From positions 471,723 to 535,722 of the forward strand of contig CAVSFE010000002.1 in the NCBI GenBank assembly GCA_963727315.1: DNA of 64,000 nt, in the 5' to 3' direction. This DNA comes from an uncultured Chloroflexia bacterium. GTDB lineage: Bacteria; Chloroflexota; Dehalococcoidia; Dehalococcoidales; RBG-16-60-22. The stretch's first letter is position 1, and every line of letters begins with the position of its first letter. The translations under genes and the position numbers were made by a program. The notes under the pieces were generated by a model. It worked only from the letters and a program-made list of their open reading frames with translations, did no database searches and had not been told where the DNA came from. This document shows, in pieces, positions 5,696-48,274 of the stretch.

Positions 5696-5790
5696 AAAAA
5701 ACTTAACGATTTCCGGGAACCGATTCGCTTTTCGTTTTTTTATTTTTTATTTTTAATTTTGAAGCTGAGGCGCTTAATTTTATAGCTGAT

Positions 5791-5934
5791 ATTCGTTTTT
5801 CGATTTATGTCAATTCAGCTTCAAAATCCCGTTTATTCGTTTTTCGATTTATGTTAAATCAGGTTCAAAATCCGGGTATTCGTTTTTTAAAGTCCGTCAT
5901 TCGTTTTTAATGTTATGTTAAGCTAGCTAAATCC
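5791..5934. repeat. AT-rich tandem array of degenerate ~43-44 bp units, each beginning ATTCGTTTTT
   Basis: Copies at 5791-5829 and 5835-5873 are near identical (ATTCGTTTTTCGATTTATGT.AA.TCAG.TTCAAAATCC). Shorter or degenerate copies lie at 5878-5895 and 5899-5934. Confidence 0.8.
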
Positions 5935-6002
5935 CCCACTTATACCGCCAATATAAGTTACATTAAAAGCGGTAAGGAAGCAAGAGAATTTTGTCACTAT
6001 TT

Positions 6003-6300
6003 GACCTCACCCCCTACCCCCTCTCCAAACCTTAGATTAATTTAATAGTTTTATATTTTGTTTGGAGAGGGGGATAGCAATTGAGAGGGGCTGGCGCCCC
6101 TCTCGCTGACGCACTCCGTTTAGCGGAACGAAAAAACCTCTCAATCTCCCTTTACGAAAGGGAGAAGCTATATACGTACCCCATTTTCCCTCACCTATGG
6201 ATTCAAGCTTTCGCTAAAATGACAAAACAAGCGAGGTGTTTAAGAGGGGTCACGACCCCTCTTTCTTTTTCTTCCCCCTCTCCGTCGACGGAGAGGGGGA
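6003..6300. repeat. cluster of nested REP/MITE-like hairpins (CCCCTCTCC / GGAGAGGGG family)
   Basis: Inverted repeats: 6017-6030/6060-6073, 6083-6104, 6145-6165, 6242-6263 (followed by a T-run) and 6275-6300. The ACCTCACCCCCT leader at 6003-6014 recurs at 26709 and 38444. Confidence 0.8.
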
Positions 6301-6353
6301 TTAAGGGGGTGAGGTTGAGTCTCAATTCAACACTCGAACGGCATATTACCAGA

Positions 6354-6383
6354 TTGACTTTCCGGGGCGGAAATGGCTAGAAT
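6354..6383 (+). promoter_or_regulatory. candidate sigma70-type promoter for CetZ-like gene 1
   Basis: TTGACT (6354-6359), 18-nt spacer, TAGAAT (6378-6383). GGAGAGG RBS lies just before ATG 6409. Confidence 0.45.
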
Positions 6384-6408
6384 TAAGAAACAACCGGAGA
6401 GGTAAACA

Positions 6409-7584
6409 ATGAAGCTAGTCGTGGTGGGTTTCGGGCAATGCGGCGGCAGGATTGCCGACGAGTTCGCCCGTCTCAATAAAAGGGCGCGCGGCCTGCGCGG
6501 GCTCAACATCATCGCCGGTTCTTACGCGGTCAATACCGACCTCGCCGACCTCAGCGGGCTGCACACCATAAAGTCCAATTTCAGTCAGCGCATCGTCATC
6601 GGCAAGAAAAAGACCGGCGGCCACGGCGTGGGCAAAATCAACGAGCTCGGCGCGGAGATAGCCCGCGAAGACGCCGACATGGTCATCGAGACCATCCGGA
6701 ACACCGAAGACTTCGCCGAAACGGACGCCTTCCTGCTGGTCGCCAGCGCCGGCGGCGGCACCGGCTCCGGGGCGATACCGGTCATGACGCAGCAAATAAA
6801 AGAACGCTACGTCGATAAACCGGTCTATAACCTGATAGTCCTGCCCTTCGAGCACGAGGTCGTCACCGAAGACAGGACCGTCTATAACGTGGCCACCTGC
6901 CTGAAGTCCAGCTACCTCGTAGCCGACGCCATCTTCCTCGTCGATAACCAGCGCTACGTCATGAAAGACTCGTCGCTCACGCACAACCTCGCCAAGATAA
7001 ACACGACCATCGTGCAGCCGTTTTTCAACCTGCTCTGCGCCGGCGAAGAAAAAAAGGCGCAGTACATCGGCGCCAAGATACTCGACGCCGGCGACATCAT
7101 CCAGACGCTGGTGGGCTGGACGACCCTCGGCTACGGGCGGTCAGAGACCTCGATTTTCAAATCGTTCTGGCCGGTGTCGCGCAACTTCCGGGACAAAGCC
7201 CACGAAACGCAAAAGGGCATCCACGCGCTCGACGAGGCCATCAGCGGGCTTTCGATAAAGTGCAATCCGCTGGACTCGAAGCGGGCGCTGTACCTCGTAT
7301 CCGCCCCGGCCGAAGAAATCAACGTCGACCTGATAAAAGAGCTGGGAACATATATCAAGAACATGGCGCCGGAAGCCATCATCAGGAGCGGCGACTATCC
7401 CCGGGAGAAAGGCAACCTGGACGTCACCATCATACTCTCGGAGATGAGCGACGTGGAAAAGGTGAGGAGCTATTTCACCAAGGCCATCAACCTCATCGCG
7501 GAGCTCAAGAAGCGGCAGGAAGGCCTGGTAAGCACGCAGCGGGGCATCGATATCACGATTAAAGATATCCCATCGCTGCTGTAA
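6409..7584 (+). CDS. tubulin/FtsZ-superfamily GTPase, CetZ-like (copy 1)
   Basis: 391 aa. Motifs: GFGQCGGRIADEF, AVNTDLADL, GHGVGKINELGAEIA, tubulin signature GGGTGSG (nt 6751-6771) and T7-like FLVDNQRY. C-terminal tail is KDIPSLL. Confidence 0.8.
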   Translation: MKLVVVGFGQCGGRIADEFARLNKRARGLRGLNIIAGSYAVNTDLADLSGLHTIKSNFSQRIVIGKKKTGGHGVGKINELGAEIAREDADMVIETIRNTEDFAETDAFLLVASAGGGTGSGAIPVMTQQIKERYVDKPVYNLIVLPFEHEVVTEDRTVYNVATCLKSSYLVADAIFLVDNQRYVMKDSSLTHNLAKINTTIVQPFFNLLCAGEEKKAQYIGAKILDAGDIIQTLVGWTTLGYGRSETSIFKSFWPVSRNFRDKAHETQKGIHALDEAISGLSIKCNPLDSKRALYLVSAPAEEINVDLIKELGTYIKNMAPEAIIRSGDYPREKGNLDVTIILSEMSDVEKVRSYFTKAINLIAELKKRQEGLVSTQRGIDITIKDIPSLL

Positions 7585-7748: not shown

Positions 7749-8237
7749 CTATCTGGCAATCTTGGAATAAATCTGCCAGGCCTGCTCGATGGTCTCGTCG
7801 CGGACTTTCCAGGCCTTCTCGACATGCTCGTCACGGACGCGGGTGGCCTCGGCGATAGCGGCGTCGCAGGCGCCGGTGGCCGCTTCGACGGCGACGCGGT
7901 AGGCTTCCTCGGCTTTAGCGATGATGCCCTCGCGGGTCGTGGCGGCCCTGGCCATGGCCTGCTCGCGGTCCTTTAAAGCCTGCGCCACGGTGGCCTCGTA
8001 AGACCGGTGCGACTGCGCTTCCGCCCGTTTATAGGCCTTAGCGACCTGCATCTCGTTCTCGTGGTAAGCCTTGGCGACCTGACGCTCGGCGTCCATATAG
8101 GCGGCATAAGCCCTCTCGGCCTGGCTCATGACCTCATCAAGGGCGCTCTTGGGTCGTTCCCCGGCGGCCGCCTCGGCCCCCTCGGCAGGGACTTCTACTT
8201 CTATCGGTTTTTTAGGTCTGTCTTTCTGGCTAGGCAC
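7749..8237 (-). CDS. hypothetical alpha-helical protein with 11-residue (hendecad) repeats
   Basis: 162 aa. GTG start is preceded by AAGGAGGTG. Repeats include QVAKAYHENEM/QVAKAYKRAEA/QSHRSYEATVA. No family recognised. Confidence 0.65.
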   Translation of the reverse strand: MPSQKDRPKKPIEVEVPAEGAEAAAGERPKSALDEVMSQAERAYAAYMDAERQVAKAYHENEMQVAKAYKRAEAQSHRSYEATVAQALKDREQAMARAATTREGIIAKAEEAYRVAVEAATGACDAAIAEATRVRDEHVEKAWKVRDETIEQAWQIYSKIAR

Positions 8238-8350: not shown

Positions 8351-10621
8351 TTAATCCCCATTTTCTTCGGTATCTTCGGCGTCCGCCCCCCTCCTGGCCT
8401 GCTGGTTCCTCTTGGCCTCGTACATCCGGGCCAGAGACTCCAGGCGGGACTCCATCTTACCTTTAGACTCTTTATCAGCTTTTTTATCGGTCTGGCCGGC
8501 CTTTTCCATGGCCTGTTTCATATTCTCGAGGGCGGCTTCAGTGGACTGAAAAGGTCCCGGCTCTTTTTCTTCCGCCTCGTCCCGGGGCCCTTCAGCGCCG
8601 GCAGGTTTTTCGACTTCGGTTATCTCTTCGGACTCTTCATCTTCGCCGGCCAGCGCGCCCTGGTGCAGCGTGGCCTGATAGGCCTTGAGCGATGCCTCGG
8701 CGGTGTCGCGGGCGACCTGGCCGGTGGCCTCGGCGCGGCTGATGGCCTCCCTGAAGGCGGTGATAGAAACGCCGGCCGCCTCCCGGGCCACCCTGGCCGA
8801 GGCTTCGGTCGCCTCCTTGACCGCCTTTACCGTTCTCTCCGCCGATTCCCTGGCGGCTTTAATCAGACTGCCGGTTACCTCCCGGGCGGCCTTCACCGCG
8901 GCCTCGGCGGCTTCCTTGGTCTCGCGGCTCACCTGCTCCGCCCGGGCGATAGCGGCCCGGATTTCCTTCTCCGAAGCCGCGGCGATCTCCATGGCGCTGG
9001 CCTCGGCGATATTGATAGCCTCTTTAACGGTCTTCAGCGATGCCTCCGCCGTCTCCCTGGCCGAAAGGTTCAACTCCTCGGCTTTAGCCACCGCCTCCTC
9101 GGACTGTTTTACGGTCGCCGCAATAGCCTCCCGGGCGGCTTTCGCCGATGCCTCGGCGGTCTTTTTAGCCGCGGCGGCAATCTTTTCCATCCGGGAGACG
9201 GTCTCCCGGAACTCGGCGGACGACGCCTCGACCATCGCCCTGGTCTCCTGGCCGATGGCCTCGGCCCTGGCGATAGCTTCCTTCGATTGCTCGGTCGACT
9301 GCCGCGAGGCCTCCTGAGCGGCCTGAGCGGCATTGGCGGCGGCCTCCTCAGTGGCCTGAGCGGCCGCGGTCACGGCTTCCTGGGTCGCCTTGGCGGACGC
9401 CTCGGCCGACTTGCGGGCGGCCTGGGCGGACGCCTGGGCGACCGCGGCGGCCTCCTTACCCTCTTCCTCCGCCCGGGCGATAGTGGCCTGAATATCGCTA
9501 GCGGTGGCCTCGGCAAGGTCACGGGTCTCCCGGCTGATCTGCTCGGCGCGGGCGACCGCCTCGCGGAACTCATCGGCGGCCAGCGCCGCGCCGGATTTAG
9601 CTTCCTTACCGATGGTCTCCGCCTGGGCCATGGCCTCGCGGGAGGCCTTGACCGACGCCGCCGAGGCTTCCCTGGCCATTTTTACGGCGGCTTCCGTTAT
9701 CGCCTTCGTCTCCTCGACGATATCCTCGGCCCGGCGCATCGTTTCCTGGGCAGCTTTTTGCAGGGTATCGGTGAACAGCCTGGCCTCACGCTGGCTGGCT
9801 TCAATCTTGTTCAACGTCTCCTGGGACGACCTCTGGGCGGCATCGGCGACCTCGCGGGCGACCTTGCTGATGGTCTCCGAGCGGGTAGCCGCTTCCTCCG
9901 CCGCCTTGGCCGAGAGGTCGGCCGCCTCGCGGGTCGATTTGCTCGCCCGCTCCGCCCGGACGACGGTTTCCTTGGCGGCTTTATTGGCGGCATCGGCGGC
10001 CTCCTTGGCTTCACGAGCCAGCCGGTCCGCCCGGAGGGCCGCATCCCGGGTAGCCTTAATGGATTCTTCGGCGGCTTCCCTGGCGGTCTTGACGGTCGCC
10101 TCGGCCAGGCTGACCGCCTCCTCCGACGCCTCGCGGGCGGAATCCGACGTCTTTTTCGCCTCGCGGCTGAGCTCGTCGATGCGGCCCAGCCCTTCCTGGG
10201 ACAACATCAGCGCCGACTCCGCGGCGTGCATCGCCTCGGAGGTAGACTTTTCGGCGCGGGCGATGGCTTCCTCGAAGACCTTAGTCATCGACTCCGTGGT
10301 CTCTTTGGGCCGGCGGGCGACTTCCTCCGCCCGGCTGATGGCTTCGCGGGCGGCCTGAATGGCGGCCTCGGCGGACTCCCTGGCCTCGCGGCTGATCTGC
10401 TCGGCGCGGGTGACGGCATCCTGGGCGGCCTTAGCGGCGGCCTCGGCGGCCTCCTTGGCCTCCCGGCCTATCTGCTCCGCCCGGAGGGCCGCTTCCACAG
10501 CGGTCCTGGTCGATATCCCGGCGGCCTGCCGAGCCGCCCGGCTCAAGGCCTCCGCCCTGGCGACCGCCTTCTCAAAGTCGCTGGTATTCTTATCAACGCC
10601 CTGGCTGGTGTCAGGAGACAT
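8351..10621 (-). CDS. hypothetical 756-aa Ala/Glu/Arg/Lys-rich repeat protein (predicted long helical/coiled-coil rod with acidic C-terminal tail)
   Basis: ATG is preceded by GGAGGA. Repeat domain runs about aa 22-654 (nt 8660-10558) in a 25-residue register anchored on RAE. The + strand ORFs here are Gly/Leu/Arg-rich shadows. Confidence 0.75.
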   Translation of the reverse strand: MSPDTSQGVDKNTSDFEKAVARAEALSRAARQAAGISTRTAVEAALRAEQIGREAKEAAEAAAKAAQDAVTRAEQISREARESAEAAIQAAREAISRAEEVARRPKETTESMTKVFEEAIARAEKSTSEAMHAAESALMLSQEGLGRIDELSREAKKTSDSAREASEEAVSLAEATVKTAREAAEESIKATRDAALRADRLAREAKEAADAANKAAKETVVRAERASKSTREAADLSAKAAEEAATRSETISKVAREVADAAQRSSQETLNKIEASQREARLFTDTLQKAAQETMRRAEDIVEETKAITEAAVKMAREASAASVKASREAMAQAETIGKEAKSGAALAADEFREAVARAEQISRETRDLAEATASDIQATIARAEEEGKEAAAVAQASAQAARKSAEASAKATQEAVTAAAQATEEAAANAAQAAQEASRQSTEQSKEAIARAEAIGQETRAMVEASSAEFRETVSRMEKIAAAAKKTAEASAKAAREAIAATVKQSEEAVAKAEELNLSARETAEASLKTVKEAINIAEASAMEIAAASEKEIRAAIARAEQVSRETKEAAEAAVKAAREVTGSLIKAARESAERTVKAVKEATEASARVAREAAGVSITAFREAISRAEATGQVARDTAEASLKAYQATLHQGALAGEDEESEEITEVEKPAGAEGPRDEAEEKEPGPFQSTEAALENMKQAMEKAGQTDKKADKESKGKMESRLESLARMYEAKRNQQARRGADAEDTEENGD

Positions 10622-10653
10622 TAATCATCCTCCCCGATAAATGACGCCCCCCT

Positions 10654-10682
10654 ATTATATTATTCAATCCCCAGTTTTTCAA
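10654..10682 (-). promoter_or_regulatory. candidate sigma70-type promoter for the 756-aa gene
   Basis: On the minus strand: TTGAAA (10677-10682), 17-nt spacer, TATAAT (10654-10659). A 7-5-7 inverted repeat GGATTTT/AAAATCC lies at 10693-10711, just upstream. Confidence 0.5.
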
Positions 10683-10776: not shown

Positions 10777-10805
10777 TTGACATTGCAAGCTAATTATGTT
10801 AAAAA
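10777..10805 (+). promoter_or_regulatory. possible promoter for CetZ-like gene 2
   Basis: TTGACA (10777-10782), 17-nt spacer, TAAAAA (10800-10805). The -10 element is weak. Confidence 0.3.
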
Positions 10806-10846
10806 TAGCTTAAGGTCATCAGGATTTTTTATCATCGAGGTGCAAG

Positions 10847-12021
10847 ATGAAATTAGTAGTTGTCGGTCTGGGTCAATGCGGCGGTAGAATCGCCGACGAG
10901 TTCGCCCGACTCAACTCGAGAGCCCACAGCAGGCGCGGCATGAACATCGTCACCGGCTGCTTCGCGGTCAATACGGACGCCGCCGACCTGAGCGGGCTAT
11001 CCGCCATATCCAACGACCACCGCCACCGCATCCTCATCGGGAGCCGCAAGACCGGCGGTCACGGCGTCGGCAAAATCAACGAGCTCGGCGCCGAAATCGC
11101 CAAGGAAGACGCGGACAAAATCGTCGACGCCATCAGGGCGACGAAGCGGTTCTTCGAGACGGACGCCTTCCTGCTCATCGCCGGCTCGGCGGGCGGTACC
11201 GGCTCCGGCGCCATCCCCATCGTCACGCAGCACCTGAAAGAGCGCTACATCGATAAGCCGATATGGAACCTCATCGTCCTCCCCTTCGAACACGAAGAGA
11301 CCACGGAAGAAAGGACCACCTTCAACGTCGCCACCTGCCTCAAGTCCTGCTACTCCATCGCCGACGCCGTCTTCCTCGTCGATAACCAGCGGTACGTCAG
11401 GAAAGACTCCTCGCTCCAGGCCAACCTCGCCAAGATAAACTCCATGATTTCCGAGCCGTTCTACAACCTGCTCTGCGCGGGTGAAGAAAAGAAGTCCAGG
11501 TACATCGGCGCCAAGCTGCTCGACGCCGGGGACATCATCCAGACAGTGGTCGGCTGGACAGTCATCGGCTACGGCAAGACGCAGGCGCCCCTGTTCAAAA
11601 TGCCCCTCGAACTGAGGAAAGATTTCCGCAAGAAGGGCCAAGAAATCCAGAAGGGCATCCAGGCGATGGACGAGGCCATCAGCGAGCTATCGCTCAAGTG
11701 CAATCCCGCCGATTCCCGCAGGGCATTATACCTGGTCTCCGGCCCGGCCAAGGAAATGAACATGGACATGGTCAAGGAAATCGGGGACTACATGCGGGAC
11801 ATCGCGCCCGAGGCCATTATCCGCAACGGCGACTACCCGCGAGAGAGGGGGTCGTGGACGTGACGGTACTACTCTCCGAGCTCAGCGACGTAGAGAAAGT
11901 GCGCGACTACTACCTGAAATCGACCGACCTCATCCCGGAGTTCAAGAAGCGGCAGGAAGAGACGGAGGACAAGCTCCGGGAGCTGGACGAGGTTGCAAAA
12001 GACATTCCGTCGCTGCTGTAG
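10847..12021 (+). pseudogene. tubulin/FtsZ-superfamily GTPase, CetZ-like (copy 2); reading frame broken as assembled at a G-run
   Basis: Same motifs as copy 1 (GLGQCGGRIADEF, AGGTGSG, FLVDNQRY). Frame 10847-11863 joins frame 11698-12021 if the G5 run at 11847-11851 is G6. Tail again ends KDIPSLL. Confidence 0.8.
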
Positions 12022-12042: not shown

Positions 12043-12072
12043 AAGAGGGGCTGAAAAGCCCCTCTTTCTTTT
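12043..12072 (+). terminator. rho-independent terminator after CetZ-like gene 2
   Basis: AAGAGGGGCT-GAAA-AGCCCCTCTT stem-loop followed by TCTTTT. Confidence 0.6.
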
Positions 12073-12201: not shown

Positions 12202-13867
12202 ATGCCTTCACAGGTTTTTTATAGAAAGTGGCGCCCTCAATCGCTCGTCGAGTTCGTCGGGCAGGAGCACGTCACCCACACCCTGCTCAACGCCCTTGCG
12301 ACCGAGCGCGTCTCGCACGCCTACCTTTTCTGCGGGCCGCGGGGGACGGGCAAGACGACCACCGCCCGCAACCTCGCCAAAGCCATCAACTGCCTCACCA
12401 ACGGCAAGGGCGAGCCCTGCAATAAGTGCTCGATGTGCGTGGCCATCACCGAAGGGCGGGCTTTAGATGTCATCGAGGTGGACGCCGCCAGCAACCGCGG
12501 CATCGATGAAATCAGAAATCTAAGAGAAAAGGTCAACTACGCCCCCAACGAAGCGCGCCGCAAGGTCTACATCATCGACGAGGTCCACATGCTCACCAAG
12601 GAAGCGTCGAACGCCCTGCTCAAGACGCTGGAGGAGCCCCCGCCGCACGTCGTCTTCATCCTGTGCCACCACCGAACCCCACAAGCTCCTGCCGACCATC
12701 CTGTCGCGCTGCCAGCGCTTCGATTTCCACCGCTACTCCCTGGCCAACATGGTGACAGTGCTGTCCCGCGTCTGCGAAGGGGAAGGCATTCACATCGAGG
12801 CGGAGGGGCTAAAGCTCATCGCCCGGGCGGCCACCGGCAGCCTGCGCGACGCCCTCAACCTGTTACAGCAAGCCAACACGTACTACGGCAGCGAAATCAA
12901 CCTCGCCCAGGTGCAGGCCCTCCTCGGCATTACCGGCGACCAGCGCGCCAAAGAAGTGGTCAGGCACATCGTCAAACGGGACGCCAGCGCCGGCATCACC
13001 ACCATCAACAACGTCAACAGCGACGGGCTCGACCTGCGCCAGTTCCACCGCGAGCTGGTGGAATACCTGCGCCGGCTGCTCATCGTCAAGACCGGCTCCA
13101 GCGACTCCATCGAGCTGACCGCCGAGGACATCAAAGAACTCAAAGAACTGGCCGCCAAAACGCCGCTGCCGGTTATTATCAAAGCCATCAAGCGTTTCGG
13201 ACAGCTCGAACTCAGCCTGGACAACTATTCCACCCTGCCCCTGGAGCTGGCCCTGGTAGACTGCACGATAACCGAGCCGGAAGACAAGGCACCGTCCGCC
13301 CGCCAGGCCGAAACCGAACCGACCGGCCGACAGGCGACGCCCAGATATAACCCGCCGCCAGCCCGGCCCAAAACCACGCCTCAACCCGCAGAAAAAAGCA
13401 TCCGCGAACCGCCGGCCGACAAGCCAGCGGCGGCCGAGAAACCCATTACCACAGCCGCCGAAAAACCAGTCCCGGTAACCGCGGAGAAACCGGCACCTCC
13501 GACGGCGGCTAAAACCGAGGCCGGTCCATCGGCGGTAGTCGGCACCATCGAGCAACTGCAGCAGCAATGGAGCAAGATTATTAACGATGCGCCCGACGGC
13601 ATGAGCAAGACCCCGGCGGCCGCCCTGCTCCGCTCCGCCCGACCTAAAGAAATAACGGACAACGTCCTGATAGTATCGTTTAGATATCCGATGCACAAGG
13701 ACAATATGGAGAAGCTGGAAAACCAGAAAATGGCCGAAAAAATCGTCAGCAAATTCATGGGCCGCGCCTGCCGGGTGCGCTGCGTCTACGAGCACGAGAA
13801 CAACCACCTGGTACAGGAAGCTATTAATAATTACGGAGCGCAACGGATGAACACGGAGGAGACATGA
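12202..13867 (+). pseudogene. dnaX: DNA polymerase III subunit gamma/tau; frameshifted as assembled near 12664
   Basis: Walker A GPRGTGKTT and IIDEVHML are in the first frame. ATTEPHKLLPTILSRCQRFDF follows in the next frame after an extra base at about 12664. The second frame runs to 13867. Confidence 0.85.
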
Positions 13868-48187: not shown

Positions 48188-48274
48188 GGAGGGGTGGCCG
48201 AGCGGCCTATGGCGACGGTCTTGAAAACCGTTTCCCGATTTATCGGGACGTGGGTTCGAATCCCACCCCCTCCG
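48188..48274 (+). tRNA. tRNA-Ser (anticodon UGA)
   Basis: Acceptor GGAGGGG/CCCCTCC, anticodon stem ACGGT/ACCGT with loop CTTGAAA, long variable arm TCCCGA-TTTA-TCGGGA, T-arm GTGGG-TTCGAAT-CCCAC. No encoded CCA. Confidence 0.9.

Follow-up and report, generated by a model that had tools for sequence, protein, structure and literature searches.

Why should two tubulin-like proteins that diverged long ago end in exactly the same seven residues? The question is raised by a 64,000-nucleotide stretch of DNA (hereafter the window) from an uncultured member of the Dehalococcoidales (contig CAVSFE010000002.1, positions 471,723 to 535,722), which carries two genes for CetZ-like guanosine triphosphatases (GTPases) of the tubulin superfamily, here called cetA and cetB. 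An earlier sequence-only reading of the window had reported that both products terminate in KDIPSLL, and we confirm this. In cetA (6409..7584, + strand, 391 amino acids), the product of which ends ...KKRQEGLVSTQRGIDITIKDIPSLL, the tail is encoded at 7561..7581 (+ strand) and is followed by the stop codon at 7582-7584. In cetB (10847..12021, + strand) the C-terminal frame ends ...KKRQEETEDKLRELDEVAKDIPSLL, with the tail at 11998..12018 (+ strand) and the stop codon at 12019-12021. The comparisons below reveal a short motif under selection in both paralogs, which probably serves as a docking peptide.

Conservation of the KDIPSLL tail

A scan of species-representative genomes with a single protein as query yielded 78 loci, all from close relatives. 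From these Dehalococcoidales/Dehalococcoidia loci, which derive from metagenome-assembled genomes (MAGs), the distinct orthologs, 73 of cetA and 56 of cetB, were taken for statistics. The 120 closest database homologs of cetA were also compared, as were 120 cetB-type proteins from a profile search with a diverse alignment; that search returned only cetB orthologs, and its proteins serve as a sample of tails, not of diversity or taxonomy. KDIPSLL ends 119 of the 120 cetA homologs and 114 of the 120 cetB-type proteins. Among the genome loci, cetA tails read KDIPSLL (58), KDIPSLI (14) or NDIPSLL (2), and the termini of the 56 cetB orthologs are KDIPSLL, RDIPSLL, KEIPSLL or KDIPTLL, in some cases extended by a single residue. 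Mean column entropy is lower in the tail than anywhere else in the protein (0.19 for cetA and 0.26 for cetB; the core reaches 0.57 and 0.47, and the linker that precedes the tail 0.73 and 0.62). At each tail position the orthologs draw on the full set of synonymous codons, including CCC, CCG, CCT and CCA for Pro388 and six codons for Leu390, and amino acid changes are close to nil. As judged from these alignments, [K/R]-D-I-P-S-L-L-COOH is a short linear motif on which strong purifying selection acts at the protein level in both paralogs, and the conservation across homologs that the sequence-only reading had named as a check is borne out.

Taken alone, the paralog pair of the window is weak evidence, because with 67% identity between cetA and cetB as background a run of seven identities has a probability of ~0.06; it is the comparative data that carry the case. 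The two genes use different codons at 35% of their identical residues. Only 3 of 14 residues are identical between the paralogs at positions 371-384, as against seven of seven in the tail, and even there three of the seven codons differ synonymously and the stop codon differs as well. The linker flanking the tail and the 3′ untranslated region are unrelated between the two genes. cetA and cetB stand side by side in ~50 loci and are always co-encoded. The split between them is thus shown to predate the divergence of the sampled Dehalococcoidales, and the paralogs are ancient.

Recent duplication, marked by uniformly low divergence of the DNA, had been named as the finding that would undo the proposal, and the 67% identity and the codon differences reveal the opposite. 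Recent duplication, gene conversion or a constraint on the 3′ end at the DNA or RNA level is therefore hardly credible as the source of the identical tails. Conversion would be physically possible, as the two genes share an orientation and are separated by 4.4 kb. However, the differing tail codons and stop, the unrelated linkers and 3′ regions, the codon freedom seen among orthologs, and the divergence of a pair present across the order all argue that the identity is not left over from such an event.

The cetA-specific linker (residues 366-384, LKKRQEGLVSTQRGIDITI; 7504..7560, + strand) differs from that of cetB and is kept in cetA orthologs. Mean top-residue frequency in the linker is 0.80 within the cetA group and 0.84 within the cetB group; in the 73 cetA orthologs, G372 and I380 reach 1.0, and R378 and G379 reach 0.93. 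The consensus sequences are KKRQEG-x5-RGID-x-x-I for cetA and KKRQEETE-x-KL-x-E-x-DE-x-[AS] for cetB. The linker had been called divergent, which holds between the paralogs but fails within each ortholog group. On this evidence it can be described as a short (~19 amino acids), paralog-specific, conserved element, and not as a long, variable, disordered spacer of the FtsZ style. To judge by sequence alone, the linker resembles an acidic helix in cetB and a small beta-hairpin in cetA. An AlphaFold2 model of cetA (47 sequences of 82-97% identity) has a mean predicted local distance difference test score (pLDDT) of 49.7, with the C-terminal domain below 50, and is too poor to inform on tail or linker.

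Family membership and likeness to CetZ1 and FtsZ tails

The assignment of both proteins as CetZ-like agrees with profile and structure-database matches. Pfam Tubulin (PF00091) matches cetA at 9.5e-33 and cetB at 1.7e-32, and CetZ_C (PF21011) matches cetA at 3.1e-18; the latter domain scores 66.3 bits in cetA and 46.1 bits in truncated cetB, with a gathering cut-off of 21.6. The best solved relative is Haloferax volcanii CetZ1 (PDB 4b46, 6.8e-44), followed by CetZ2 (4b45, 1e-30) and 3zid (8.5e-16), and the best FtsZ in the same comparison (1.7e-12) is weaker than the solved CetZ structures. FtsZ proper was considered and rejected, as the two proteins score 60.5 and 64 bits with the NCBIfam equivalog TIGR00065, whose cut-off is 295.2. 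The GGGTGSG signature (near 6751 in cetA and 11189 in cetB) is invariant. Likewise, the acidic T7 residues D226 and D229, which align with D215 and the catalytic E218 of CetZ1, are invariant in 47 sequences. Both paralogs should therefore bind and hydrolyse guanosine triphosphate in polymers. Since canonical ftsZ-ftsA genes lie elsewhere in Dehalococcoidales genomes and the 64-kb window holds no third tubulin signature, the pair is taken to be additional to canonical FtsZ.

CetZ proteins have been described as archaea-specific shape determinants, whereas the pair studied here is bacterial and order-wide. The flanking dnaX, ybaB and recR genes are bacterial, all 78 related loci belong to Dehalococcoidales/Dehalococcoidia, and the 120 closest cetA homologs (82-97% identity) all come from Dehalococcoidales or Chloroflexi MAGs. 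A Chloroflexota-Dehalococcoidia group of CetZ-like proteins has already been mentioned in a phylogenetic study (PMC9871819). Because this distribution extends beyond Archaea, we use the name “CetZ-like” for cetA and cetB.

The sequence-only reading saw the tail of cetB correctly but overlooked that the gene, also recognized by Pfam Tubulin and CetZ_C, is broken by a one-nucleotide deletion at 11849-11853. The frame that starts at 10847 halts at 11863, and the C-terminal part lies in another frame. DNA alignment with cetA and with orthologs places the lesion in a G-run that is one base short at codon Gly335, where the orthologs carry an intact AGG GGN. Intact cetB genes of 390-391 amino acids are present in locus L001 (390 amino acids) and ~55 loci and among the 120 database proteins, and restoring one G in the window yields 391 amino acids. 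The essential dnaX gene next door (12202..13867) is also split, into two overlapping frames, by an extra T near 12665 (12660-12670; ATCCTG[T]GCCACC) relative to L001. Given the intact orthologs and this second lesion, both frameshifts are taken as assembly errors, and cetB is most likely not a pseudogene.

The tail extends well beyond the order. An exhaustive search of 1.8 billion cluster representatives retrieved 1279 relatives, with 72 full-length proteins among the top 150 examined. The pattern x-[ILV]-[PEDQ]-x-L-[LFI…] occurs within the last 20 residues of 29 of these 72 proteins (25-55% identity), compared with 2% of internal 20-residue windows. Tails at 30-55% identity are mostly of the proline form (DLPSLE, DIPLLL, ELPLLL, DIPTLL, GLPSLL, EVPSLL, DIPPLL), and farther, acidic, haloarchaeon-like relatives carry DIDSLF, DLEPLF, KIEPLF or RIDGLL. 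The C-terminal motif that returns in distant members of the family can be written [DE]-[ILV]-[P/E/D]-x-L-[LFI]. We considered a rule in which proline tails mark bacteria and Asp/Glu tails mark archaea, and dropped it: representative P0204 (DIPPLL) lies amid archaeal-looking genes, and most representatives come without taxonomy. One of the distant relatives, with a DIDSLL tail, sits in a same-strand run of more than 12 genes without Pfam matches and with an adjoining S8 peptidase (L088:1-13170); this run may be a virus or mobile element that carries a tubulin-like gene.

The terminus of Haloferax CetZ1 (4b46), ...DEDELESLF, aligns with KDIPSLL position for position. Changing LESLF to AESGG in CetZ1 abolishes rod development (bioRxiv 10.1101/2024.04.08.588506). 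In the same study the tail is described as a motif for protein-protein interaction, envelope association is tied to the M-loop, and a filament model has the tail in contact with the adjacent subunit. By alignment, KDIPSLL is thus shown to be positionally equivalent to the functionally essential CetZ1 tail ELESLF, and the tail in the window can be regarded as the local version of a C-terminal tail that belongs to the CetZ family. Both systems have a CetZ_C domain and an acidic-[I/L]-x-S-L-[L/F] motif at the extreme C-terminus after helix H11. They differ in host (a haloarchaeon versus bacteria of the Dehalococcoidales), in the third motif position (Glu in CetZ1, Pro in both paralogs of the window) and in what precedes the tail (an acidic stretch versus a short, conserved, paralog-specific linker). 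Moreover, unlike in Haloferax, a single tail is common to two paralogs within a conserved four-gene module.

Tails of FtsZ provide the second comparison. In E. coli FtsZ (DYLDIPAFLRKQAD, core DIPAFL), I374 and L378 are crucial to ZipA, FtsA and MinC; this tail acts on other proteins, ClpX among them, and is dispensable for polymerisation. In Corynebacterium glutamicum FtsZ (DDLDVPSFLQ), D436, P438 and F440 contact SepF (PMC7118173). Bacterial FtsZ tails have an “almost universally conserved” proline, and archaeal tails centre on a GID motif, as in M. smithii NEDQLDDFIDGIF (PMC8178401). Like the bacterial peptide, KDIPSLL closes a GTPase of the tubulin superfamily with the core D-[I/V]-P-x-[F/L]-L, and its acidic residue, proline and hydrophobic residue are spaced like D436, P438 and F440 of C. 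glutamicum FtsZ, which also ends soon after the hydrophobic pair. The distant acidic CetZ relatives, with RIDGLL, DIDGVI, DIDSLF and DIDSLL, resemble the archaeal form …F-I-D-G-I-F, whereas the Dehalococcoidales proteins have Pro where these relatives have Asp or Glu, and the resemblance is that of a short pattern only. CetZ has been proposed to derive from archaeal FtsZ (PMC9871819). The tail resemblances are consistent with that proposal, although six residues are no proof.

We consider it probable that KDIPSLL is a conserved C-terminal docking peptide of the Dehalococcoidales CetZ-like pair. The analogy with FtsZ drawn in the sequence-only reading thus survives in part, with a selected, family-wide C-terminal motif of the docking-peptide kind, but without the variable linker it had assumed. 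Several observations weigh against this interpretation. The likeness to FtsZ comprises six residues, and the pattern that captures it was defined post hoc: none of 1953 unrelated open reading frames (ORFs) in the fetched loci has D[ILV]P.[FLIM][LIMF] among its final 12 residues, a count made with a pattern set after the sequence had been seen. The basic residues that follow the core in E. coli FtsZ (FLRK, RKQ) are absent, since cetA and cetB stop at LL; C. glutamicum FtsZ lacks this extension as well. The conserved linker of ~19 residues is unlike the long, poorly conserved, disordered linker of FtsZ, and the last 31 residues, when searched against PDB sequences, had only chance helical matches. 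Also, the archaeal-looking contig of P0204, with genes for F420 ligase and AFOR, suggests that the proline form may not be a bacterial adaptation.

Candidate partners of the tail

If KDIPSLL is a docking peptide, its acidic residue, proline and two terminal hydrophobic residues would enter a pocket in a partner protein. Since the identical tail sits behind different linkers, one common partner would recognize both filaments, or a co-polymer of the two paralogs, and the linkers would set a paralog-specific geometry or regulation. FtsA, a receptor of the FtsZ tail, is a tentative candidate for this partner. An adjacent subunit or the other paralog within the polymer seems a slightly weaker candidate, and p756, a helical protein encoded between cetA and cetB, a weaker one still. 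Dehalococcoidales have lost peptidoglycan synthesis and retain mraZ-mraW-ftsA-ftsZ (PMC10608941), and Chloroflexi are not among the phyla listed with SepF. That FtsA is kept, that Chloroflexi are missing from this list and that the tail has an FtsZ-type pattern all favour FtsA, which as partner would tether the filaments to the membrane.

Among explanations that assign the tail a different role or target, the least improbable is that it acts within the polymer, packing on a neighbouring subunit or on the other paralog and stabilizing protofilaments or mixed co-polymers with no external partner; we regard this as a minority possibility. It agrees with the filament model of CetZ1, where the tail meets the subunit next to it (bioRxiv 10.1101/2024.04.08.588506), with the invariable co-occurrence of cetA and cetB, and with the persistence of the tail in distant homologs whatever their gene neighbourhood, as self-contact predicts. 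However, the globular surfaces have diverged to 67% identity while the tails have stayed identical, and the motif matches an FtsZ tail that targets other proteins and is not needed for polymerisation. Slightly less probable is docking of the filaments onto the coiled-coil proteins of the module (p756, with or without its neighbour p162), the role that the sequence-only reading had suggested for the adjacent helical proteins. The conservation of the four-gene arrangement in ~50 Dehalococcoidales loci speaks for it, as do the architectures of p162, a single helix of 130 residues, and of p756, a long helical repeat with conserved terminal patches. Helical proteins that bind FtsZ tails exist, such as EzrA. 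Against coiled-coil docking, distant homologs without such neighbours carry DIPTLL (by nuo genes), DLPSLE (by a terminase-like gene), ELPLLL or GLPSLL (by ftsH), and four loci of one sublineage (L042, L045, L047 and L051) that lack p162 retain DIPSLL on both paralogs. The motif also reaches archaeal CetZ proteins with unrelated gene contexts (PMC9871819). These cases argue against the neighbours as obligate partners, with p756 a possible one.

Direct targeting of the membrane by an amphipathic helix, the other role that had been proposed, is very unlikely. The two terminal leucines, the isoleucine and a hydrophobic moment of 0.41-0.60 over the last 11 residues would suit such a helix, and some FtsZs of wall-less bacteria are reported to bind membrane directly (bioRxiv 10.1101/2023.08.29.555414). 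Yet only seven residues are conserved, with a proline at their centre; no Arg or Lys flanks them beyond K385; net charge ranges from 0 to -3 across the last 11-18 residues, compared with +3 to +4 for the membrane helices of MinD and FtsA; and the cetB linker is strongly acidic. For the accompanying statement that CetZ proteins use a C-terminal helix for membrane association we found no source, and the CetZ1 study ties envelope association to the M-loop instead. A similarly small chance attaches to the idea that the hydrophobic C-terminus is a degradation tag read by an AAA+ protease adaptor. A terminal -LL resembles C-degrons, and ClpX binds the E. coli FtsZ tail, but the conserved upstream Asp and Pro and the function of the tail in CetZ1 point to structured docking and not to a minimal degron.

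One could extend the docking interpretation to a picture in which the wall-less, S-layered Dehalococcoidales possess a CetZ-type cytoskeleton of archaeal descent, with two paralogs expressed together and perhaps joined in a mixed co-polymer, dedicated coiled-coil proteins, and a D-I-P-x-L-L tail that plugs into FtsA. As a whole this picture is doubtful. If it is correct, a single membrane tether would serve both CetZ-like and FtsZ filaments, in common or in competition, and the proline-type tail would represent an ancestral CetZ/FtsZ tail adapted to a bacterial receptor.

Conserved C-terminal tails are already known in FtsZ and CetZ1, and the tail described here, although real, is largely expected; its interest would rise only if a CetZ-type cytoskeleton does plug into the bacterial FtsZ anchor. 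Searches of the accessible literature that combined CetZ with Dehalococcoid* or Chloroflexi returned nothing beyond the mention in PMC9871819. As far as we have seen, new elements are the order-wide paralog pair with an identical proline-type tail and paralog-specific conserved linkers, and the module of four genes, two of which encode orphan coiled-coil proteins. The seven-residue tail offers a concrete handle for finding CetZ partners and bears on the homology of FtsZ and CetZ tails, and the module represents a conserved four-gene cytoskeletal set in bacteria that have lost peptidoglycan.

The four-gene module and its flanks

The order cetA (+), a gene for 160-180 amino acids (-), a gene for 670-910 amino acids (-) and cetB (+), followed by dnaX-ybaB-recR, is found at nearly every locus with enough flanking sequence (~50). 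In the window the first of the inner genes, p162 (7749..8237, - strand), is convergent with cetA and encodes 162 amino acids, with a disordered, basic N-terminus and one long helix. AlphaFold2 predicts a single continuous helix from residue 32 to 161 with pLDDT above 90, and the sequence has an 11-residue periodicity. The gene is conserved beside cetA in ~68 loci and is absent from the four loci named above, where the p756 homolog is also shorter (~525-650 amino acids). Despite these ~68 orthologs, a database of 5.8 billion proteins yielded only six fragmentary or chimeric matches to p162, on contigs of less than 1.1 kb; the gene seems either to be poorly represented or, being Ala-rich and repetitive, to be missed by the word index.

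The second inner gene, p756 (8351..10621, - strand), is divergent from cetB and encodes a 756-residue helical repeat protein, so classed by composition and periodicity. It is rich in Ala (27%) and Glu (16%), has no hydrophobic segment, and shows periodicities of 25, 36 and 11 residues. Patches at its N- and C-termini are conserved, and a homolog separates cetA from cetB wherever a locus has enough flank. Neither p162 nor p756 matches a family in Pfam, NCBIfam or PHROGs, even at E values up to 5. From sequence and model, p162 and p756 are therefore predicted to be fibrous proteins of the coiled-coil type. Long ORFs antisense to p756 (up to 653 amino acids; for example, 8663-10624, + strand) most likely do not represent genes; the GC-rich Ala/Glu codon repeats of p756 would produce them as artefacts.

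Promoter-like sites precede both paralogs. That of cetA (TTGACT-18-TAGAAT; 6354..6383, + strand) and that of cetB (TTGACA-18-AAAAAT; 10777..10806, + strand) are kept in orthologous loci and in the window have AGATTGAC in common. Indeed, the element GATTGACA-N17-TAAAAT is conserved ~57-64 nucleotides upstream of the ATG of each gene in dozens of genomes (L003-L074), which suggests strong and possibly co-ordinated expression. A sequence scan also located a site that matches 11 of 12 consensus positions (TTGAAA-17-TATAAT; 10654..10682, - strand) and would direct transcription of p756 divergently from cetB.

The sole Rfam match in the 64-kb window is a tRNA gene (48188-48274, 58.9 bits), and the cetA-cetB region has none. 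The spacer between gap and cetA (5696-6408) spans ~710 bp here and only 135 bp in L001, which is syntenic; in the window it holds a terminator-like hairpin and a 99-residue ORF (6081..6380) with low GC content at third codon positions, which is probably non-coding. This hairpin (6242-6263), situated between gap and the cetA promoter, and the terminator-like hairpin 3′ of cetB (12043..12066, + strand), with a 10-bp stem followed by a T-run, have near-identical stems and tails (AAGAGGGG…CCCCTCTT TCTTTT); the twins may be a recurrent terminator or a repeat element.

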